This document shows, piece after piece, positions 25,601 through 34,700 of a DNA stretch of 64,000 nt. How positions within the stretch are numbered: position 1 is the stretch's first letter; each line of letters opens with the position of its first letter. Source of the DNA: an uncultured Phycisphaerales bacterium (GTDB taxonomy: Bacteria; Planctomycetota; B15-G4); assembly GCA_964490005.1 (NCBI GenBank), contig CAZBBB010000001.1:19558-83557 (forward strand), read 5' to 3'. Made by a program: the position numbers and the translations under genes. A model generated the notes under the pieces. The model saw only the letters and a list, made by a program, of their open reading frames with translations. It had not been told where the DNA came from and searched no databases.

Positions 25601-25922
25601 CCTCGACAATTTCCTGTTTCTCCGCGACCTGGCGCCGACGCTGACCTTCAACGGAGCGACCCTCGGCCGGGTCATGGACGGCAGCTTCCAGTTCATCGCG
25701 CCCTCCGGGAATGCCGGCGAGGCGCTCGTCATGAGTCTCGGGATCGTGGCGCTCCCCGACACGGGCATCGCCAACTTCGCGGCACCGATCTTCTACCCGC
25801 TGGCGGCGGTCTCGAATCCGATCGCGGAGCCGATTCCGGTCCTCGTGCCGCTGATCAGCACCGCCCTGCTCGGCAACGACTTCCGGTTCTATCTGCCGGC
25901 CGCGGCACCGCTCACGCCTTGA
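22698..25922 (+). CDS. Large secreted multidomain hypothetical protein (~1074 aa; Ig-like N-domain plus probable beta-propeller)
   Basis: Signal peptide MRPHPLIRLFSAVLVLVSGGAAA-Q; TolB/WD-like blade motifs VAPDGRSL, AFSPDGSRVAW, ITNLT and PSPYSGKLAFS. ATG lies 7 nt after TAAACT. Confidence 0.75.
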   Translation: MRPHPLIRLFSAVLVLVSGGAAAQVPGEFPHLRLTDNVSVAVPPLAGPFDNSHEFPVLAGQQFTAQLSYASLGQPNTNVLWALLVSLNKTPFPQTSVPPPLFTMPPFSLILPTPATLNVAGAGALDMVIPAGLPSGLIRVQGVIHDVTSAPALRLSNGVTISVQVPAYNIRMPLIRNKELGTAGSFDTFGQLSIAGSQLKTFTPLGTSPPPQPTDPPYAPPKAGVTVTMQPGLLVDRHVFLPILPNNGAEPINPLARPMTRITGSVTGTATTITVEDTSFFPSRGQLLIAFNNANLWANKTSGGAVAPFAEVVSYEGITPTSFLNCQRKLLGSTGATSFAHVAGEVVLGEYTMATTADARTRTRVGLDADNVDMPHVVIPPFTFTPVDGGPVTMDLDVYLYETVTDKVQGFMVFDRASGQWRPIPGTERNPFQGRWNPMVCVAPDGRSLLATLSVPGGVLGWDNKVDELHALRLDGLNWPASGSQTWSISWQVEADPATVFVVSARSRRVIMRSTAIIGPNPENYVAFVGLAHKFKQSTPTPGANFETDNGFEGVWVREEVLVRDLFELPLVPPGSSKAAPTMPRPWITTQFGNTAFGGEVRRFDPEVLPSDDNTRLFIIGGRKDTEEAAFVIRNVGINAGGGVDKVLVDVVGSVDKREMRPPRRGGHGRGRTAAFSPDGSRVAWLVRDTAANTQRKDWINVALSSGASFGQVQNVYQLGADFKEAGALKTDRVVTGLRFLDNNRLLFMMGRNPHDDPLPTSASFPPAMDLFVYDIPSNLITNLTKTDGSTSGFGNLGKINPGGSFASSTGAFTYFLRFGGSSSVGGSALPPGTPVTNLVGVNSDSLQVFAVSGDEFGPGALIPNLRLPDAECVAPVETAASLRLLLGGGVQDGLVWVVSHRQGGNGADDIFAFNRDVPFVSFAATAHATPGTHVRNVTPSPYSGKLAFSRTSSTSKILADEHPWVIDLDNFLFLRDLAPTLTFNGATLGRVMDGSFQFIAPSGNAGEALVMSLGIVALPDTGIANFAAPIFYPLAAVSNPIAEPIPVLVPLISTALLGNDFRFYLPAAAPLTP

Positions 25923-26689
25923 GGACGTTCGAGCCGTCGTCCTTCTCCGGACGGCGTGTCGTGCTCGTGGCGCCGCACCCCGACGACGAAGTCTTCGGCG
26001 CCGGCGGCACTGCATGCCTGTTGGCACGCAGCGGGGCGCTCGTCGTGCCGGTGATCGTCGCGCGAGGCGACGGGGGAGTGACGGGCGGAGCGGACCCGGG
26101 CGAGCGGGAGGCGGAGTCCCGTCGCTGTTGCGAGATCCTCGGCCTCGGCGAACCGCACTTCCTGCGGCGGCCGTCGGGGGAGTTGCGTGAAGACCCGTCG
26201 CACGTCGCGGTCGGCCTGAGCGAGGCCTGCGGCCGGGATCCGGCGCACCTCGTCCTCGTGCCGTGGCCGCTCGAGCGCCACGCGACGCATCGTGCGACGC
26301 TCGCGGCGGGGTTGCTCGGCGTCGCCGCGCTGACATCGGCCACCTGGCTGGGTTACGGCGTGTGGGACGCCATTCCGGCGGACCCGGACGTGCTCGAGGT
26401 GGACGTCACGGCGGTGCGTTCGGAAAAGACCCGCGGCATGGCGGCGCACGTCAGCCAGAATCGTGATCGTGCACTGGCGGCCGGCATGGCGGCACGGGAC
26501 ATGTCCCAGGCCGTCTTCTCGCGGATCACGGGCGAGGACGCGCGCAAGTCGGTCGAGCGGCTCGTCGATCTCACCGAGCTCGCACGGGCTCCCCGACCCG
26601 AGTGCCGTCGCGACGTGTCGCTCCGAATCCGGGAGTGGGCCGCCGGGCGCGCGCTCCGACGGTGCGACGACCTCTGGCCCGTATCCTGA
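25919..26689 (+). CDS. PIG-L/LmbE-family deacetylase
   Basis: LVAPHPDDEVFGAGG, REAESRRCCEILG and HATH (HxxH). TTGA overlap with the upstream stop. Confidence 0.85.
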   Translation: MRTFEPSSFSGRRVVLVAPHPDDEVFGAGGTACLLARSGALVVPVIVARGDGGVTGGADPGEREAESRRCCEILGLGEPHFLRRPSGELREDPSHVAVGLSEACGRDPAHLVLVPWPLERHATHRATLAAGLLGVAALTSATWLGYGVWDAIPADPDVLEVDVTAVRSEKTRGMAAHVSQNRDRALAAGMAARDMSQAVFSRITGEDARKSVERLVDLTELARAPRPECRRDVSLRIREWAAGRALRRCDDLWPVS

Positions 26690-26695
26690 TCCGGA

Positions 26696-27586
26696 TCAGG
26701 CGGCGCGACGGCGGGCGCCGACCGCCAGCAGCGCCGCGATGAGGACCGCGAGCAGCACCGGCGGCGAGAACAGCAAGGCGACGGCTTCCGAGCCCGCGCC
26801 TCCCGCGAGCGAGTACGCAGGCGTGGCGTATCCGTCGAGGTCGGACACGCGCTCGATGAGCAGCGCGATGCGCCCCAGGACGGTGAAGCCGAACATGCTT
26901 CCGAACGTGATCATGAGCGTGACGACGCCGACGCGCGACACGGCCCTGAGCGCGGGGCCGCGCCGGAGCGTGAACAGGAAGTGCGCGAGCGCCGAGACGA
27001 GGCCGACGTAGAAGACGACCCGCGTCAGCGTGAACCAGAGCGCCGTCTCCTCGATCCGCGAGGCGTCGGCCATGCTCAGAGCCAGGGGATTGTCCATCGG
27101 CTGGATGGTGTTGGCGATCATCAACACGAGTTTGCTTTGCGTCTCGCCCGTCATCTTCAGGGCCGCGTAGACGCCGACCATGATGGCCAGCGGCCAGCGC
27201 GGGGCCCAGGACGAGGGCTTGAACAGGCGCACGAGCAGCATGAGCGCGAGGACCAGGGCGGTCACGCGCAGCCCGATCGCCAGCAGCGGGTCCAACGCGA
27301 TGCCCGCGAGCACCTGCGGCTCTCCCGCTGCGGCATGCTCGCGCGCCTGCGCGATGTACTCGAAGATCGGCTGCAGCACGCCCTCTTCGTAGTACTGCAA
27401 CGTGAAATACGCCGTTCCCAGTCCGACGAAGACGTGCTCGGCGAACTTGTAGAAGGGGTTGTCGCTGAAGAGGAAGCTGAAGACCGCCAGCGTGAAGAAG
27501 CACACGAGCCACGCCCCCAGCACATCGTTGGTGCCGGTGGGGTCGAGCGAGATGAAGGCCGGCGCGTCCTGGAGGGCGAGGATCAT
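26696..27586 (-). CDS. Polytopic membrane protein (~7 TM), glmL-operon subunit
   Basis: ATG 27586 overlaps the upstream stop (ATGA); TLAVFSFLFSDNPFYKFAEHVFVG and ITFGSMFGFTVLGRIALLIER; hydrophobic segments counted by eye. Confidence 0.75.
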   Translation of the reverse strand: MILALQDAPAFISLDPTGTNDVLGAWLVCFFTLAVFSFLFSDNPFYKFAEHVFVGLGTAYFTLQYYEEGVLQPIFEYIAQAREHAAAGEPQVLAGIALDPLLAIGLRVTALVLALMLLVRLFKPSSWAPRWPLAIMVGVYAALKMTGETQSKLVLMIANTIQPMDNPLALSMADASRIEETALWFTLTRVVFYVGLVSALAHFLFTLRRGPALRAVSRVGVVTLMITFGSMFGFTVLGRIALLIERVSDLDGYATPAYSLAGGAGSEAVALLFSPPVLLAVLIAALLAVGARRRAA

Positions 27587-28437
27587 GCCTTGGCTCCGCG
27601 CGTCCGGAAGTACAGCAGGTTGCCGATCACGATCAGGACGATGATCAGCATGTGGCCCCACGACTGCACCAGCATGCGGCGCTGGTTCTCGCGGGTGGTC
27701 GCGTGCAGTTCCGCATCATCGACGACCAGGCTGACCTTCTGCAGGTACTGCGTGGCGCCCGTGGCTGCGCCCAGGAAACCGCGCAGCTGCCGCGGGTAGA
27801 ACGCGAACAGGTCGGGCGTCTGCACCGCGGTCGTTCCGGAGAGCAGGGGCACGTTGTAACGGCCGCCGACCTGGGCGATCCATTCGAGGATGCCGGGGTA
27901 CCCGGCCGACATCGTGACGAGCAGGGAGATGCCCTGCATGTTGTCGCCGCAGGCAGCCAGCAGCGGCACCTGGTCGTAGGGCGTCCGGTCGCGCGCCTCG
28001 GCGGGGAAGGCCGATCGCAGCGACTGGCCGATCTGGCCCATCGCGACGTCGTCGCCGGGCTTGAATCCGAGTTCGACCCAATCGACGCCGTACTGCGCCT
28101 GGTACACGGGTGCGATCCGCGAGTAGGTCTGGCTGATGTAGGGCGGGGCCGCGGGCCAGGTCGTCAGGTTCACGACGCGCAGCTCGCGCGCGAGCAGGTG
28201 GTGGACCACGCCCTCGTACATGGGCAGGAGTTCGGCCGCGCTGGCCGGATCGAAGTCCGCGGAGAGCATGACGACCGACCCGGGCGGCAGAGCCTCGATC
28301 GTGGCGTGGAAGCTGTCGACGTACGGACTCGACGGCAACGGCGCAGCTCGGTCGGAGACGTACAGCCCGACCACGACGACGGCCATGGCCAGGAAGATCC
28401 AGCGGCGGTCGAACTCGCTCGTGAGAGCCATCGTCAT
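27583..28437 (-). CDS. Membrane protein with N- and C-terminal TM helices around an alpha/beta domain, glmL-operon subunit
   Basis: ATG 28437 (ATGA overlap); RRWIFLAMAVVVVGLYV TM, central SVVMLSADFDP...LLSGTTAV, C-terminal QSWGHMLIIVLIVIGNLLYF TM. Confidence 0.75.
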   Translation of the reverse strand: MTMALTSEFDRRWIFLAMAVVVVGLYVSDRAAPLPSSPYVDSFHATIEALPPGSVVMLSADFDPASAAELLPMYEGVVHHLLARELRVVNLTTWPAAPPYISQTYSRIAPVYQAQYGVDWVELGFKPGDDVAMGQIGQSLRSAFPAEARDRTPYDQVPLLAACGDNMQGISLLVTMSAGYPGILEWIAQVGGRYNVPLLSGTTAVQTPDLFAFYPRQLRGFLGAATGATQYLQKVSLVVDDAELHATTRENQRRMLVQSWGHMLIIVLIVIGNLLYFRTRGAKA

Positions 28438-29123
28438 TCCGAGAGGTAGCTGCGCTCGATGCCGAGCACGATGCGAAGTCCGGTGGCGAGCACGCCCATC
28501 GTGGCGCCCACGATGATCGCCGTCTGTCCGGCGCCGTTGACGTCCTTCATCAGAAAGGCCAGCGCGCGCGACGCGTAGCCGCCCGTGAGCTGATCTCCGA
28601 GCGGCACCTGGCCCAGCATGACGACCGTGCCCGCCGCCAGCAGCAGCGTCGATTCGAGCGAGCGGGCGCGGAAAGCCCGGAACGCCGCCGACGCGATGTA
28701 GAAGGCCAGCAGGCTGAACATGGTGGCCTGCAGCGGGATGAAGACCTTGCGGTAGACCCAGTCGCGCAGGGCGCGCTCGCCGTACTGCTCGGCGAGGGCG
28801 GTTCCCTCGAAGGCGCCGTGCATCTCGGCGAGGCCCAGACCGAGGTAGCCGAACAGGACGACCAGCAGCACGACCTTGTAGGGCCGGTCGCGATGGCCGC
28901 TGGCGATCTGCTTGAGGCTGATGCGCGCGAGGTTCGCGATGCCGAGGATGAAGGCGACCGAGAAGAAGATCAGCGCCCACTGCAGCAGTTCCGCGTTGAG
29001 GCCCTGCGCGACCGTCTCGTAGCCGACAGCCGTCGAACCGGGCGTCGCCGGCGGGGCGAAGAACGACCAGGTGATGATCAGGCCGCAGAGCACCGTGAGC
29101 AGGATCGGGATCTCGCGCTTCAC
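28434..29123 (-). CDS. Polytopic membrane protein (~6 TM), glmL-operon subunit
   Basis: GTGA overlap; PLQATMFSLLAFYIASAAFRAFRARSLE and GLRIVLGIERSYL motifs. Confidence 0.75.
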   Translation of the reverse strand: MKREIPILLTVLCGLIITWSFFAPPATPGSTAVGYETVAQGLNAELLQWALIFFSVAFILGIANLARISLKQIASGHRDRPYKVVLLVVLFGYLGLGLAEMHGAFEGTALAEQYGERALRDWVYRKVFIPLQATMFSLLAFYIASAAFRAFRARSLESTLLLAAGTVVMLGQVPLGDQLTGGYASRALAFLMKDVNGAGQTAIIVGATMGVLATGLRIVLGIERSYLSE

Positions 29124-30043
29124 GATCCGGCTCCCAGCAGGCGCTTGATCACGTCGGCCCAGCCGGGACCGGCGGCCTCAGTCGCCACGTGCATCGTGGC
29201 CAGGATCGTCCCGCCCAGCAGCAGCACGATGCCGATGATCTTGGTGATGTCGCCGGCGCGAATCGTGCCCATCAGGTTCGGCTCGCGGGTGAGGTAGGCC
29301 GTGACCGCGAAGTACTCCTCGCCCATGATCGTGTAGTCGCAGGCCGCGACGAAGAACGGCAGCTGGTGCTGCTTGGCCGTGCCCGCCACCTGGATCGCCC
29401 CGCTCATGAACCCGGTCTCGGCCAGGATCAGCGATTCGGCGAAGAACATGCCGAGCATGATGTTCGCGGCGGGCTTCTCGCGCGCCATGATCCCGGCGAC
29501 GCCGGCGCAGTAGGCGAACTGCTCGTTGCTCAGATAGCGGATGTTGTCGGGCACGAAGGCCTCGGGGCGCCCGGCGTCGAGGCAGCCGCCCCGCACGGCC
29601 TCTTCGGCGAAGGCCATGACGATGGAGTCCTTGACGGGCACGATCAGGTCGGTGCCGTACTCGGCCGTCTTGCGCGCGACGTGCCTCAGGATCATCATCG
29701 AGTAGATCGTCTGGATCTCCTTGATCTCGTCGATGCCCGGCACGTAGAGCACCGGACGGCCCATCTCGGTCGCGCGCCCGATGGCCTCGTCCATCGCGTC
29801 GAGGCCCGCGATGCGCCGGATCTCGAAAGGCCGGCCCTGCCGTGCGCGCCGGGCGTACAGGAACATGAGCGTGCCGAACAGCAGCACGACGCACAGCGTG
29901 GGCAGCTTGCTCGGCTCGATCCACGCGCCGAGGCCCTCGCGCACGCCGTCGGCCCCGACGCTTCCGGCGGCCTCGTCCAGCCACAGCCACGCCCGCTCGG
30001 CCGCAGTCCCGTCGGCCGAGGCTTGGAGCGCGGCGAGCATCAC
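29120..30043 (-). CDS. DUF6754-like membrane protein
   Basis: IRRIAGLDAMDEAIGRATEMGRPVLY, QFAY, FFAESLILAETG and PFFVAACDYTIMGEEYFAVTAYL. I recall this pattern as DUF6754 (not searched). Confidence 0.75.
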   Translation of the reverse strand: MMLAALQASADGTAAERAWLWLDEAAGSVGADGVREGLGAWIEPSKLPTLCVVLLFGTLMFLYARRARQGRPFEIRRIAGLDAMDEAIGRATEMGRPVLYVPGIDEIKEIQTIYSMMILRHVARKTAEYGTDLIVPVKDSIVMAFAEEAVRGGCLDAGRPEAFVPDNIRYLSNEQFAYCAGVAGIMAREKPAANIMLGMFFAESLILAETGFMSGAIQVAGTAKQHQLPFFVAACDYTIMGEEYFAVTAYLTREPNLMGTIRAGDITKIIGIVLLLGGTILATMHVATEAAGPGWADVIKRLLGAGS

Positions 30044-31167
30044 AGGCGTTCGTCCACGAGTTCGACGTTGGCACGCGGAAGCGTGACCTGGCGCCCGTCC
30101 TCAGCCAGGGCGACCGTGAGGATACGGACCAAGGCCTCAGTGTCCAGCGCGCGCGGTTCGTGGGGGAGTTCGACCACGCGCGCGAGGGCGCCGAAGTGCG
30201 GGTCGCGGATGATCCGCACCTGGCTGCCGACGCTCATCATGCCCGTGTCGACGACGGTCGTCTCGGCCGCGGCCACGTCCCCGGGGACGAGGATCTCGGG
30301 GCGCATCACGCCGGCGCGGATCTGCGTGGCGCCGCTCACCGACGCGACCTTTCCGGCCTGCGCCGCCAGCAGCCGGTGCGTGCGCGCCGACATCGCCAAC
30401 GCGCCGAATCCCTCGGTCACGACGACCGTCAGGCCGAAGTCCTCGTTGCCGGTGATGGCCACGCCGAGGTCGAAGCCCAGAAGTTCCTTCAAGTCGGCGG
30501 CGTCGATGCCGCCGACGACGAGCGCCGCCGCGCCGACCTCGATCGCGCGGCGCAGCGCCGGCAGCCGCGCGATCGAGCCGCCGACGACGACCGCGCCGCG
30601 GTGCTCGGCACGCAGGTCGGCCGGCTCGACGGGGCGCCCCGGCTCGCCCGGAAGGAGCACGACGGGGCCGGACGTCTCCGGGCCGACGCCGAAGATGCCC
30701 TGGACCATCGTGCCGCGCGCCCGCACGTCGGCGCCGAATCCGGGCGTCGTGCCGACGATCTCGCCGGCGACGTAGGCGCGCACGTCGACCGGGATCGGCG
30801 TCTCGCGGAAGATCGCCTGGCCGGAGACCTTCGACACCGACTCCAGCACGCCGTCCGTCGGCGCGACCGCGGTCTGCTTCATGAGCCCGAAGATGCCCTT
30901 GCTGCGCGCCACGGGCTGGTCCTTCTTCACCGCCTCGCCCTCCTTCACGAGCAGCAGTTCGCCGAGGTCGGCCGCGGCCACGCCCAGCAGCCGCGACAGG
31001 TGCGCGGTGACGACGTTGCCCGGCATGAGCGCGCGAGCCACGACCGTCTGGGGCTCGACGCGCTCTCCCTGTCGCACGAGCACGTCGCCCGGGATCGGCA
31101 GGATGCGCGAGCGCGTCCACTCGGCCGCGGCCGACACCTTCAGTCCGGGCGTGTAGGCATGACCCAT
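30040..31167 (-). CDS. Uncharacterised soluble protein with barrel-sandwich-hybrid, swivel-like and KOW-like segments
   Basis: ATG 31167 MGHAYTPGLKV; two V..GExV...xVAR half-barrel motifs plus APTDG; GAVVVGG...AIEVGAAALVVGGI; C-terminal VGSQVRIIRDPHFG...LPRANVELV. Confidence 0.75.
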   Translation of the reverse strand: MGHAYTPGLKVSAAAEWTRSRILPIPGDVLVRQGERVEPQTVVARALMPGNVVTAHLSRLLGVAAADLGELLLVKEGEAVKKDQPVARSKGIFGLMKQTAVAPTDGVLESVSKVSGQAIFRETPIPVDVRAYVAGEIVGTTPGFGADVRARGTMVQGIFGVGPETSGPVVLLPGEPGRPVEPADLRAEHRGAVVVGGSIARLPALRRAIEVGAAALVVGGIDAADLKELLGFDLGVAITGNEDFGLTVVVTEGFGALAMSARTHRLLAAQAGKVASVSGATQIRAGVMRPEILVPGDVAAAETTVVDTGMMSVGSQVRIIRDPHFGALARVVELPHEPRALDTEALVRILTVALAEDGRQVTLPRANVELVDERL

Positions 31168-31180
31168 GGCGAAACGGTCC

Positions 31181-32998
31181 TCAGCGAGCGGCGGGGGCGG
31201 CGGGATACAGGTCGAGCGCGGCGTTCCAGGCCTCGATGGCGGCAACGCGCTCGGCGGCCGTCGACGGCACTTCGATGGGGCGGCCGCGACCGTCGAGGAT
31301 CAAGCCGACCTCCCCGCCCTCCAACTCGGTCTCGAGCGCGACGCCCGGCCCGGCGCCGACGTCGACGCCGCGCGAGGGCTCGATGCGGCAGCGCGCCTTG
31401 AGGCCCGGACCGAGCGGCAGGCGCTGCAGCGCGCCGCGCTGCAGTTCGATCTGGCGCGTTCCGTCCGGCAGTTCGAGGCGCAGCTGCGCGAGCGGCGCAC
31501 CGCCGCGCGGGGAGCCGACGGGGGCCAGGCAGGTGCCGAGCGGCACGAGGCAGTCACGATCGAAGACCTCGGTCGCGGCGGCCTTGTGCACCGTCGCCAG
31601 CACTCCGAGTTGCGGCATCATGAAGATGCTGTCGACGGCCAGGCGCGTCACCCCCGCCGGCTCGAAGGAGTCGATGAGCATCAGCGCCGCCTGCACGCGC
31701 CGCGGCGCGTGGCTGAGCACGCCGCCGCTCCCGACGAGCAGGTCGAGCGCCATCATGTCGACGAGCGAGCCGCCCGAACCCTTCTGCTCGAAGGCTTCCG
31801 AGATGTCGCGCGCCCGCTGACGCCCCTTGAGCTCCGTGGCGAAGTCGCGGTGCTGCACGAGCGACAGGCGCAGCGCTTCGCGCGCGATGGCCTGTTCGAC
31901 CTGCAGGTCGCGCAGCAGCGAGGGGATCGTCGTCGGCCGCACCATCTTGTTCTTCACGCGGTTGCGCAGTTCGCCTTCGTCGATGTCGAAGGGCACCCAG
32001 CGCAGCACGTTCTCCAGACCGGTCGAGGCGAGCACGTTGCTGATCGAGTAGGACATGCCCAGGTTGGCCGAGACCGTGCGGTTGAACGTGCCGCGGAAGA
32101 CCGAGAACACGTCGGTCGTGGCGCCGCCGATGTCCACGCCCAGCACGGACAAGCCGCGTTCGGCCGCGATCGTCGAGATGATCAGCCCCACCGCGCCGGG
32201 CGTCGGCATCACGGGCGCCGAGGTCCACGAGCGCAGCTTGTCGTAGCCCGGCGCCTGGGCCATGACGTGCTCCATGAACAGGTCGTGGATCGTGTCGCGC
32301 GCGGGCCCGAGGTTCTCCTCGTCGAGCGTGGGGCGCAGGTTGTCGACCAGCGACAGCGCGGTCTTCTCGCCGAGCGTGTCGGCGACGGCGCCGCGGGCCT
32401 CCCGGTTTCCGGCATACACGACCGGCAGGCGGTAGTCGGCGCCCAGCCGGGGCTTGGGATCGGCGGCCCGCACGAGTTCGGCCAACTCCGCCACGTGACT
32501 GGTCGTGCCGCCGTCGATGCCCCCCGAGAGCAGGATCATGTCGGGTCGCAGGTGCCGGATGCGGCTGATCTGCTCGTGCGGCTTGCGCTTGTCGTTGCTG
32601 CACAGCACGTCCATGACGATCGCGCCGGCTCCGAGCGCGGCCCGCTCGGCGGACTCCGCCGTCATCGAGCGGACCACGCCCGCGACCAGCATCTGCAGGC
32701 CGCCGCCGGCGCTGCTCGTGGAGAGGTACAGGTCGACGCCTTCCTCACCCCGACGGGGGAGGATGATGCGGCCCTCGTCGTCGATGAGCCGCCGCCCCGC
32801 CAGCTCGGCGACTTCGGTCACGGCGTTGAGCACGCCGACGGTGACGTCGTCGAAGGGCGCCTCGACGGTCGTCGGCGCCTCGCCGCGCACCGCCAGCCGG
32901 AACCCCTCGGGCGTGCGCTCGATCAAGATCGCCTTGGTCGTCGTGCTGCCGCAGTCGGTGGCGAGGATCGAACGCACCGAGGCCAGATCGTCCGTCAC
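31181..32998 (-). CDS. glmL: GlmL/MutL-like (glutamate mutase L family) ASKHA actin-fold ATPase
   Basis: LATDCGSTTTKA (phosphate 1), TSSAGGGL, DIGGATTDVFS (phosphate 2), RTVSANLGMSYS and GSGGVLSHAP. AAGGAG RBS before GTG 32998. Confidence 0.85.
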   Translation of the reverse strand: MTDDLASVRSILATDCGSTTTKAILIERTPEGFRLAVRGEAPTTVEAPFDDVTVGVLNAVTEVAELAGRRLIDDEGRIILPRRGEEGVDLYLSTSSAGGGLQMLVAGVVRSMTAESAERAALGAGAIVMDVLCSNDKRKPHEQISRIRHLRPDMILLSGGIDGGTTSHVAELAELVRAADPKPRLGADYRLPVVYAGNREARGAVADTLGEKTALSLVDNLRPTLDEENLGPARDTIHDLFMEHVMAQAPGYDKLRSWTSAPVMPTPGAVGLIISTIAAERGLSVLGVDIGGATTDVFSVFRGTFNRTVSANLGMSYSISNVLASTGLENVLRWVPFDIDEGELRNRVKNKMVRPTTIPSLLRDLQVEQAIAREALRLSLVQHRDFATELKGRQRARDISEAFEQKGSGGSLVDMMALDLLVGSGGVLSHAPRRVQAALMLIDSFEPAGVTRLAVDSIFMMPQLGVLATVHKAAATEVFDRDCLVPLGTCLAPVGSPRGGAPLAQLRLELPDGTRQIELQRGALQRLPLGPGLKARCRIEPSRGVDVGAGPGVALETELEGGEVGLILDGRGRPIEVPSTAAERVAAIEAWNAALDLYPAAPAAR

Positions 32999-32999
32999 G

Positions 33000-33299
33000 T
33001 CAGTGCTCCTTGCGGGGGCCGGAGGCCGAGCGGTGGGCGTGCTCGGCCTCGTCGATGGCGCGGATCAGCTCGGGGATGGCCTCCCGCCGTTCGAGCAGCC
33101 TCGCCACGTCGTCGATGCGCGAGGCCGGCAGGCAGGCGCGCCACAGCGGCGACATGACGTGCAGCATCGAGCTGGTGACCACGTTCATGGGCGTGATCGT
33201 CTCGAGGAACATCATCGCCGGCGCCGCCATGCGCCGCGCGACGACGGCCTGCGCCGTGCTCGCGATCAGCTCGCGTTCCGTCGCGGCCAGCTCGCTCAC
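33000..33299 (-). CDS. Conserved small helical hypothetical protein (99 aa)
   Basis: GTG 33299 (GTGA overlap): MSELAATERELIASTAQAVVARRMAAPAMMFLETITPMN...; ends 1 nt before glmL and carries the glmL RBS. Confidence 0.7.
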   Translation of the reverse strand: MSELAATERELIASTAQAVVARRMAAPAMMFLETITPMNVVTSSMLHVMSPLWRACLPASRIDDVARLLERREAIPELIRAIDEAEHAHRSASGPRKEH

Positions 33300-33763
33300 G
33301 GCGCGCTCCGCCGCGCGAGCGCGAAGCGAGCGACGTCCTCGAGGTTGCCGTCGGTGCGCAGGAAGATCCCGCGATCGGGCAGCAGCCGGGGCGTCGCGTG
33401 CAGCGGCGACAGGTGCACGCCGTGGCGCTCGCGGCGCACGCTGCGCACCTCGCTCCAGGCCAGCTGCCGCGCCCCCTGCAGCGGCCCGGCCTCGCGCGCC
33501 CCGCGCGCGTCGAGCACGTAGGTGCGCGGCAGGAAGAACGGCCGCAGGGCCAGGCCCAGGGCGGCGATCGTCGCGAGCGCGAGCGCGGCCGAACCGGAGA
33601 CGCCGAAGGCGAACAGGCCGGCCGCGCCGACGATCACGACCACGCCGGCCGCCCGGCCCGGCTCGCGCGCGGCCGGATGGACCGTCCAGCGCAGCGTGGG
33701 CGCATCCGCGTCGGGGGCGGCGCTCGTCGGCATGTCGGTCCTGTCCTCCGGGTCGCGGGCCAC
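33296..33763 (-). CDS. Hypothetical two-TM membrane protein with a PH-like C-terminal domain
   Basis: LRWTVHPA, two TM helices, FFLPRTYVLD...QLAWSEVRSV. GTG 33763 lies 10 nt after TATCCT (alternative ATG 33733). Confidence 0.7.
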   Translation of the reverse strand: MARDPEDRTDMPTSAAPDADAPTLRWTVHPAAREPGRAAGVVVIVGAAGLFAFGVSGSAALALATIAALGLALRPFFLPRTYVLDARGAREAGPLQGARQLAWSEVRSVRRERHGVHLSPLHATPRLLPDRGIFLRTDGNLEDVARFALARRSAP

Positions 33764-33857: not shown

Positions 33858-34700
33858 GTGTCGCTCTCGGTCTGCATCATCACGCTCGACGAAGAAAGCG
33901 ACCTCCCGCGCTGCCTCGCCAGCGTCGCGGGCCTCGCCGACCAGATCGTGGTCGTGGACTCGTTCTCCCGGGACGGCACCGTGGCCCTCGCCCGCGCGGC
34001 CGGGGCCGAGGTCCACGAGCGCGCCTTCCAGGGGCACGTGCGGCAAAAGCAGTACGCCCTGGAACTCGCGCGCCACGAGTGGGTGCTGTGCCTGGACGCC
34101 GACGAGTGGCTGGACGACCGCCTCGCGGCGGCCGTCGCCGAACTGAAGGCCCGGCCGCCCGACGCGCAACTCGCCGGCTTCCGGGTCAATCGACGCACGG
34201 AGTATCTCGGCGCGTGGATCGATCACTGCGGCTGGTCGCCCGAGTGGCGACTGCGGCTGGTGCGCCGCGGCCGCGCCCGCTGGGCCGGGAGCGACCCGCA
34301 CGACCGGCTGGAGGTCGATGGCCGCATCGCGGACCTGCCGGGGCGTCTGTGCCATCGGCCCTACGACGGCCTCGGCGAGCACGTGGCCAAGATCAACCGC
34401 TACACCGACACGATGGCCGCGCTGCGGCGCGCGGCCGGCCGGCGCGCCTCGCTGGTCGACCTGCTGCTGCGCCCGCCGGCCCGCTTCCTGCGGATGTACG
34501 TGCTGCGCGCGGGCGTGCTCGACGGCTGGCGCGGGCTGCTGGTCTCGACGCTGGGCGCCTTCTACGTGTTCCTCAAGTACGCCAAGCTGCGCGCGCTCTG
34601 GCACGACGCCCCGCCGCCCGACTCAGGGGGCGGGCAGCACGAAGACCGTGGCGCCGAGGCCGAGGAGCGTCAGCAGTCCGCCGAGCAGGGCCCGCCCTGA
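33858..34700 (+). CDS. Glycosyltransferase family 2
   Basis: GTG 33858: LSVCIITLDEE, IVVVDSFSRDGT, QKQYALE, WVLCLDADE, RLVRR and KINRYT. Confidence 0.92.
   Translation: MSLSVCIITLDEESDLPRCLASVAGLADQIVVVDSFSRDGTVALARAAGAEVHERAFQGHVRQKQYALELARHEWVLCLDADEWLDDRLAAAVAELKARPPDAQLAGFRVNRRTEYLGAWIDHCGWSPEWRLRLVRRGRARWAGSDPHDRLEVDGRIADLPGRLCHRPYDGLGEHVAKINRYTDTMAALRRAAGRRASLVDLLLRPPARFLRMYVLRAGVLDGWRGLLVSTLGAFYVFLKYAKLRALWHDAPPPDSGGGQHEDRGAEAEERQQSAEQGPP

Follow-up and report, generated by a model that had tools for sequence, protein, structure and literature searches.

A long-form MutL/GlmL-family protein of Planctomycetota belongs to a distinct clade with its own partner protein and linked DUF6754 membrane genes

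Introduction

The described systems that come closest to the protein studied here are built around members of the ASKHA superfamily. In the diol dehydratase reactivase DdrA, an ASKHA ATPase and a swivelling domain are found in one chain. The ATPase subunits of hydantoinase, oxoprolinase and acetone carboxylase are likewise ASKHA enzymes; they depend on ATP and carry additional β domains at their C-terminal end. The nearest sequences are GlmL, which is encoded in glmS-glmL-glmE-ammonia-lyase operons, and Or-4 of the ornithine degradation operon. In this paper we looked at gene C, which encodes the 605 amino acid protein P0001 on the minus strand (31181..32998, GTG start, TGA stop) of a 64,000-nucleotide stretch of DNA, called here the window, from an uncultured Phycisphaerales bacterium (contig CAZBBB010000001.1 of assembly GCA_964490005.1). 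P0001 is a long-form member of the MutL/GlmL family of ASKHA ATPases, and a preliminary description of the window had treated it as an orphan GlmL with an extended C-terminal.

We found that C is a member of a distinct clade of the MutL/GlmL family and is not GlmL, that it is unlinked to any B12 mutase, and that it is accompanied across many phyla by a second protein, D, and by sets of membrane proteins that include DUF6754. Below we give the evidence for this assignment, describe the partner and the operon, and discuss which function would fit such an arrangement.

The family of gene C

The Pfam MutL model (PF13941) matches C at residues 11–483 over its whole length (model positions 1–450 of 450) with 412.5 bits, against a gathering threshold of 27. 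The narrower NCBIfam models give a different picture: C scores 208.5 bits with the GlmL model NF040745 (equivalog cut-off 475), 201 bits with the Or-4 model NF040744 (cut-off 600) and 147.3 bits with the subfamily model TIGR01319 (cut-off 204), and so lies below all three. As controls we used the GlmL proteins from the annotated glmS-glmL-glmE-ammonia-lyase operons of Peptoclostridium, Salmonella, Rhizobium and Prevotella (loci L033, L035, L036 and L037) together with the Or-4 protein from the oraS-oraE-or4 locus of Acetoanaerobium. All five controls are above the subfamily cut-off and four of the five are above their own equivalog cut-off. TIGR01319 gave 294–772 bits for these five mutase-linked sequences and 145–173 bits for other long or fused relatives of C; three mutase-linked GlmL controls reached 633, 506 and 448 bits on NF040745, and the Or-4 control reached 752 bits on NF040744.

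The same division is seen in alignments and in the phylogeny. Canonical GlmL and Or-4 have in common an insert of 13–15 residues (GLPEPxxKRTVEGDLG) after the phosphate-2 motif, which is missing from the long form; the long form has instead several short insertions and a C-terminal domain. A maximum-likelihood tree of the ASKHA core was built from the five canonical sequences and the best 150 representative clusters. In this tree a branch with a Shimodaira–Hasegawa-like approximate likelihood-ratio test (SH-aLRT) value of 100 parts the five mutase-linked sequences from 128 long or fused ones, and C is placed among the latter. When the tree is read with its gene neighbourhoods, as the preliminary description had proposed, C stands apart from the five mutase-linked sequences; its direct neighbours are the genes B and D, and not glmS, glmE or methylaspartate ammonia-lyase.

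Search for a B12-dependent client enzyme

If C were a GlmL, a cognate B12-dependent mutase would be looked for in the same genome, which is a Planctomycetota metagenome-assembled genome (MAG) of 3.49 Mb in 204 contigs and 87% complete. The genome has 22 matches to B12-binding domains. None of these is on contig C1, where the tblastn searches were negative as well, and neither a B12 subunit nor a mutase is encoded in the window, as had been noticed from the sequence. In the whole genome tblastn with GlmE, OraS, OraE and methylaspartate ammonia-lyase gave no match anywhere, and GlmS matched only the B12 domain of a mutase on contig C203. No match to the glutamate mutase family PF06368 was found in this 87% complete genome. 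Methylmalonyl-CoA-mutase-type genes are present on contigs C9, C203 and C191, beside a propionyl-CoA carboxylase gene. The B12-binding matches include one methylmalonyl-CoA mutase B12 domain, one stand-alone B12-binding protein and at least one that is weak and apparently unrelated. As a side observation, most of the others resemble B12-radical S-adenosylmethionine proteins of ~500–700 amino acids with a CxxxCxxC motif, which is a large complement for a 3.5-Mb genome.

The search was extended to a survey of 151 Planctomycetota genomes, 43 of which carry the long-form C. Glutamate mutase E is found in none of the 43 carriers, and in the survey it occurs only in two genomes (G007 and G049), both without the long form. 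Likewise, the model for the alpha subunit of lysine 5,6- and ornithine 4,5-aminomutase (NF052384) has no match in the 43 carriers, and only one survey genome (G016) matches it. At least 16 of the carriers have no methylmalonyl-CoA mutase, five of them closed genomes (G032, G043, G070, G095 and G132); many survey genomes without C have the enzyme. Among ~100 loci that were inspected, a mutase adjoins C in none.

The preliminary description had named two findings that would speak for a true GlmL, namely clustering with mutase-linked GlmL and a cognate B12 mutase in the genome, and neither was found. Its suspicion that the label 'glutamate mutase L' is misleading here is borne out, because C is outside the mutase-linked clade and has no cognate client enzyme.

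The two glutamate mutase genomes are of some interest in themselves. Their subunit E genes are at G007:C68:4636-5958 and G049:C22:278527-279759, and neither genome has a MutL-family match to P0001 (E ≤ 1e-10), so glutamate mutase in these bacteria seems to manage without GlmL.

Predicted structure of C and its C-terminal domain

The reading frame of gene C has a G+C content at third codon positions of 0.93 in surrounding DNA of 73% G+C, which marks it as the coding frame. An AAGGAG box resembling a Shine–Dalgarno sequence is located 7 nucleotides 5' of the GTG (33006-33011, minus strand). The protein is composed of an ASKHA core (residues 1–483, 31550..32998, minus strand) and a C-terminal domain. 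The core contains the phosphate-1 motif DCGSTTTK (residues 15–22, 32933..32956), the phosphate-2 motif DIGGATTD (residues 289–296, 32111..32134) and the adenosine motif GSGG (residues 423–426, 31721..31732), all on the minus strand. In alignments these motifs, intact in C as stated in the preliminary description, are invariant or nearly so throughout the C family.

The AlphaFold2 model of the whole protein, based on an alignment of 53 sequences, has a mean predicted local distance difference test (pLDDT) score of 89.2 and a predicted template modelling (pTM) score of 0.87. Foldseek searches with this model returned N-methylhydantoinase, acetophenone and acetone carboxylase, butyrate kinase, Hsp70, DdrA, PilM and FtsA. 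All TM-scores were in the range of 0.2–0.3, which indicates that there is no close solved structure; a PDB sequence search with C gave nothing usable. By its three motifs and its predicted AlphaFold2/Foldseek fold, C is an intact nucleotide-binding protein of the ASKHA superfamily.

The C-terminal domain (residues 484–605, 31184..31549, minus strand) is specific to the family. In the model this tail of ~120 amino acids forms seven β strands (residues 484–569) followed by a helix (581–594), a block with pLDDT values of 90–98, in agreement with the β-rich tail that was expected from the sequence. Its signature GGEVGLILDGRGRP (residues 561–574, 31277..31318, minus strand) follows the pattern GG..G.I.D.RGRP. 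Across 53 sequences that are 31–84% identical, G565, D569 and R571 are invariant, and G561, G562, G572, R573, P574 and W591 are at least 90% conserved. The tail is a genuine conserved domain. A Pfam scan of 22 such tails at E values up to 10 found no consistent family, a PDB search with the tail profile found no relative, and hhalign found no relation between the tail and D. The tail is confined to the clade that has the partner D.

The partner protein D

Gene D (30040..31167, minus strand) encodes a 375 amino acid protein. Its ATG is located 13 nucleotides after the stop of C, and a GAGGA box resembling a Shine–Dalgarno sequence precedes it (31177-31181, minus strand). D matches no Pfam family above threshold, and a PDB sequence search with it gave nothing usable. 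Between phyla it is 43–46% identical and retains many invariant residues. Its AlphaFold2 model (pLDDT 89), read together with Foldseek and weak Pfam matches, shows an N-terminal barrel-sandwich hybrid, a middle swivelling β/β/α domain that is RraA-like and a C-terminal KOW/SH3-like domain.

In the survey, 40 of the 43 carriers of C have D, and it was found in no other genome. The three carriers without it are 72–76% complete and have C at a contig end. The gene order was read from 80 loci of species-representative genomes, and 62 of these loci have enough sequence; D is downstream of C in 56 of these 62, with a median gap of 52 nucleotides. Two closed Poribacteria chromosomes contain all three of C, D and the DUF6754 gene E, at places far apart. 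Natural fusions of C and D, ~900–1050 amino acids in length, make up 39 of the best 150 clusters at 50% identity and sit in several separate places of the tree. Co-occurrence and repeated fusion show that D is an obligate partner of C.

The fusions also give an indication of how the two proteins may be arranged. In the fusion P0249 (995 amino acids) the D part, which is 39% identical, starts ~20 residues after the tail. Looking at the fusions for the RGRP motif of the tail and the KOW domain of D, both are gone in 34, both are kept in two, and the motif alone is kept in one. This hints that the motif and the KOW domain may work together, a lead rather than a statistical result, as the 34 fusions represent few clades. 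It was suggested in the preliminary description that the tail could dock the next gene product, which is D. Docking of this kind fits the data, because the tail is found only in the clade bearing D, because fusions put D ~20 residues after the tail, and because the main fused clade has lost the RGRP motif and the KOW domain together; the contact itself is so far predicted from sequences.

Two roles that the domains of D might suggest were considered and rejected. D is not a biotin or lipoyl carrier, because the barrel-sandwich hairpin A.SKG.FGLMK is without an invariant lysine (it is replaced in locus L012); the invariant residues of the hairpin are A87, F93 and G94, and the Pfam Biotin_lipoyl matches on D are below threshold. 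A phospho-relay as in phosphoenolpyruvate-utilising enzymes was also set aside: the swivelling domain has no invariant histidine and the N-terminal H3 is lost in the fusions.

Several variants of the pair were seen. Two fused paralogues of ~980 amino acids (L118:9001-11934 and L119:9001-11943) are composed of the ASKHA core, a degenerate tail and a D part without KOW, and no membrane-module genes are located near them. In the Fermentibacteria genome G151 a split C–D pair is found along with two fused-type frames. P0250 (1304 amino acids) and P0256 (1332 amino acids) have an N-terminal extension of ~690–730 residues before the long GlmL-like protein, with a Peptidase_M1 domain in one and a bacterial thrombospondin type 3 (TSP3) repeat in the other; these may be real fusions or artefacts of gene calling. 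In locus L012 (9869-10576) and in 14 of the 80 loci, with a gap between C and D of 200–1200 nucleotides, an extra gene of ~235–270 amino acids lies between the two. It is found in Zixibacteria, Ignavibacteria and relatives, belongs to no Pfam family and is missing from the window.

The operon and the DUF6754 membrane modules

From the frame plot and a reading of the gene junctions, C comes third in an operon of eight translationally coupled genes, A to H, at 26696-33736 on the minus strand, to which all of the following genes belong. Gene A (33296..33736), the first, encodes ~146 amino acids with two predicted membrane helices. Gene B (33000..33299) encodes a conserved small protein of ~99 amino acids; its GTG overlaps the stop of A (GTGA) and its own stop is 1 nucleotide before the start of C. 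Neither A nor B belongs to a Pfam family. Downstream of D, gene E (29120..30043, 4-nucleotide overlap with D) encodes DUF6754, a protein with an N-terminal transmembrane helix, a soluble domain of ~200 amino acids and a C-terminal transmembrane helix. It is followed by F (28434..29123, 4-nucleotide overlap with E), a polytopic membrane protein of 229 amino acids, by G (27583..28437, ATGA overlap with F), a bitopic membrane protein of ~284 amino acids, and by the last gene, H (26696..27586, ATGA overlap with G), a polytopic membrane protein of ~296 amino acids. Neither PDB nor profile searches, those of the PDB with the profiles of E and G included, found relatives of E, F, G or H, and hhalign detected no relation between E and G or between F and H.

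The order A-B-C-D-E-F-G-H recurs in ~15 phyla. It is found in other Planctomycetota families and in MAGs labelled Zixibacteria, Eisenbacteria, Latescibacterota, Fermentibacteraceae, Marinimicrobia, Fidelibacterota, Lentisphaeria, Nitrospirales and Deltaproteobacteria. In Ignavibacteriales, Zixibacteria and Calditrichaeota a divergent (EFGH)n / C–D layout is found. The EFGH set is present in two or three tandem copies at several loci and one Fermentibacteria genome has six copies of DUF6754, so that between one and six membrane modules are found per ATPase. In the survey, 45 genomes have C or DUF6754, and 40 of them have both; the five with only one of the two are strongly fragmented assemblies of 410–660 contigs, three of which are 72–79% complete. 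In anammox genomes (G032 and G132) C and DUF6754 co-occur though they are hundreds of kilobases apart. Synteny and co-occurrence across genomes thus show that C is linked to the DUF6754 membrane sets, and the term 'orphan' used in the preliminary description has to be dropped, given that C has fixed partners in D, in the small protein B and in these membrane sets.

The proteins of the operon differ in how well they are conserved. Outside the taxonomic family of the bacterium, the median identity to the window proteins is 65% for C, 49% for E, 44% for D, 36% for F and 31–32% for A, B, G and H. Judged by these sequence identities, C is the most constrained part of the operon.

At the two ends of the operon, other genes were noted. 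On the plus strand, convergent with the operon end, an open reading frame at 25919-26689 has the motif HPDDEVFGAGG, which suggests a PIG-L/LmbE-type deacetylase. A divergent gene at about 33858-34700 (plus strand) starts ~120 nucleotides from gene A.

Distribution and database labels

A search of species-representative genomes with a 13-sequence alignment found relatives of C encoded in at least 596 species genomes. By exact look-up, orthologues are present in Candidatus Kuenenia stuttgartiensis, Brocadia and Jettenia and in the cultured planctomycetes Gimesia aquarii and Thalassoglobus polymorphus; fused forms are found in Candidatus Zophobacter, Ozemobacteraceae and Delongbacteria. All of the looked-up orthologues carry the annotation 'glutamate mutase L' or 'methylaspartate mutase'. 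Thousands of database entries give the clade one of these two names, and the wrong label implies a B12-dependent glutamate fermentation in Kuenenia, Brocadia, Gimesia, Zixibacteria and Poribacteria. In a literature search we found no study of the clade, and neither the family, DUF6754 nor the accessions of the orthologues were mentioned in the papers searched. An identity of ~65% across phyla, the presence in at least 596 genomes and the recurrence of the same unnamed partner and membrane proteins suggest that the C module has a conserved and unstudied cellular function. With cultured carriers at hand, this function is directly testable.

Discussion

One of the questions raised by these results is what a nucleotide-binding protein that is so conserved does together with D and a set of membrane proteins. 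The reading that we favour, with a probability of roughly 0.55, is that C is the nucleotide-binding subunit of a cytoplasmic C–D unit that works with the DUF6754 modules E-F-G-H and the small proteins A and B. In such a unit ATP would be bound and hydrolysed by C, and the closure of the C domains would be handed to D, with the swivelling β/β/α domain of D as the mobile element. The unit would dock on the soluble domain of a membrane module, possibly that of DUF6754, and would do conformational work on interchangeable modules, for example in transport, assembly or resetting. The C tail with its GG..G.I.D.RGRP motif would then likely be the contact for D, and possibly for the D KOW domain.

Several points weigh against this reading. 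ATP binding and hydrolysis by C are predicted from motif conservation. The fused paralogues are found at loci without membrane genes nearby, so the C–D pair may carry out some activity by itself. As nothing known matches E, F, G or H, 'conformational work on a membrane module' stays general. In addition, the co-occurrence is compatible with membrane proteins that may be a linked transporter rather than the target of C–D.

A further possibility, which we put forward tentatively and regard as possible rather than probable, is that C–D is the cytoplasmic, ATP-driven engine of an undescribed class of inner-membrane machine, serving one to several interchangeable four-protein DUF6754 modules. If this is true, it would be the first case in which an actin-fold ATPase, and not a P-loop, P-type or rotary one, runs a primary system of membrane transport, assembly or resetting. 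The machine would be widespread in the Fibrobacteres–Chlorobi–Bacteroidetes (FCB) and Planctomycetes–Verrucomicrobia–Chlamydiae (PVC) groups and in allied phyla, anammox bacteria among them.

Another option is a soluble enzyme: C–D would use ATP to act on a small molecule, in the manner of hydantoinase, oxoprolinase, acetone carboxylase or a kinase, with D as a substrate-handling or swivelling subunit and E–H as linked uptake or export proteins. We consider this rather unlikely, even if it has more in its favour than the other alternatives. The best structural matches of C are N-methylhydantoinase, the ATPase subunits of acetophenone and acetone carboxylase and the butyrate and acetate kinases, and a Hydantoinase_A match below threshold falls at the phosphate-2 motif. 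The fused paralogues that stand alone are in line with such an enzyme, and ~65% identity of C across phyla is typical for tight active sites. However, the metabolisms of the carriers are very diverse, from anammox Brocadiaceae and aerobic Gimesia to Zixibacteria, Poribacteria and Marinimicrobia, and this diversity speaks against a specialised catabolic step. A HyuB-type partner did not turn up in the examined loci, the hairpin of D is not that of a biotin or lipoyl carrier, and the number of membrane modules varies while C–D is single.

It can also be asked whether C polymerises like actin or serves as a scaffold, comparable to FtsA, PilM or MreB, and in this way organises E–H with D as its adaptor. 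The ASKHA fold with Foldseek matches to PilM and FtsA, the very high conservation across phyla, as in cytoskeletal proteins, and the constant association with membrane proteins would all fit. Yet C is nearest in sequence to GlmL and Or-4 and nearest in fold to enzymes of the hydantoinase type, not to filament formers; the TM-scores to FtsA and PilM are 0.26–0.32 of the query. Such a scaffold is, in our view, improbable.

The weakest explanation, that C is a reactivase or chaperone for a B12 mutase encoded elsewhere (the methylmalonyl-CoA mutase on contigs C9 and C203, or a mutase in the missing 13% of the MAG), has in its favour the Pfam MutL membership of C and a methylmalonyl-CoA-mutase-type enzyme in a genome that is 87% complete, and is largely refuted and very improbable given the position of C outside the mutase-linked clade, the mutase distribution among the 43 carriers and the inspected loci described above.

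Comparison with known systems

Among the known systems, GlmL/MutL is related to C in sequence. The proteins belong to the same Pfam family, are 26–30% identical over residues ~7–480 of C and have in common the motifs DxGST.TK, SSA.GGL, PD..L..GG.DGG, AGN, PTP, D.GGATTD and G.GG. However, GlmL and Or-4 are ~450–470 amino acids long and end with the ASKHA core, whereas the 605 amino acids of C include the added domain of ~120 amino acids, and C has a different obligate partner, D. Or-4 has the same fold and motifs and is 32% identical to C; it is without the tail, and C is without the oraS/oraE context.

Of all structures, the HyuA-type ATPase subunits (PDB 9h03, 5l9w and 5svc) match the complete C model best, with TM-scores of 0.24–0.30. 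The Pfam Hydantoinase_A model gives C 22.7 bits against a threshold of 22.9, with no stretch passing alone, and the HyuB partner is absent at the C loci.

The diol dehydratase reactivase DdrA/DdrB (PDB 2d0o) has parts in common with the C–D pair: in each, an ASKHA ATPase goes together with a swivelling β/β/α domain. The fold match of DdrA to C is weak (E 2.3e-7, TM-score 0.31), and C has neither a DdrB-like partner nor the context of a B12 eliminase. What is found in one chain in DdrA is here split over C and D, and sometimes fused, and D adds to it a barrel-sandwich hybrid and a KOW domain.

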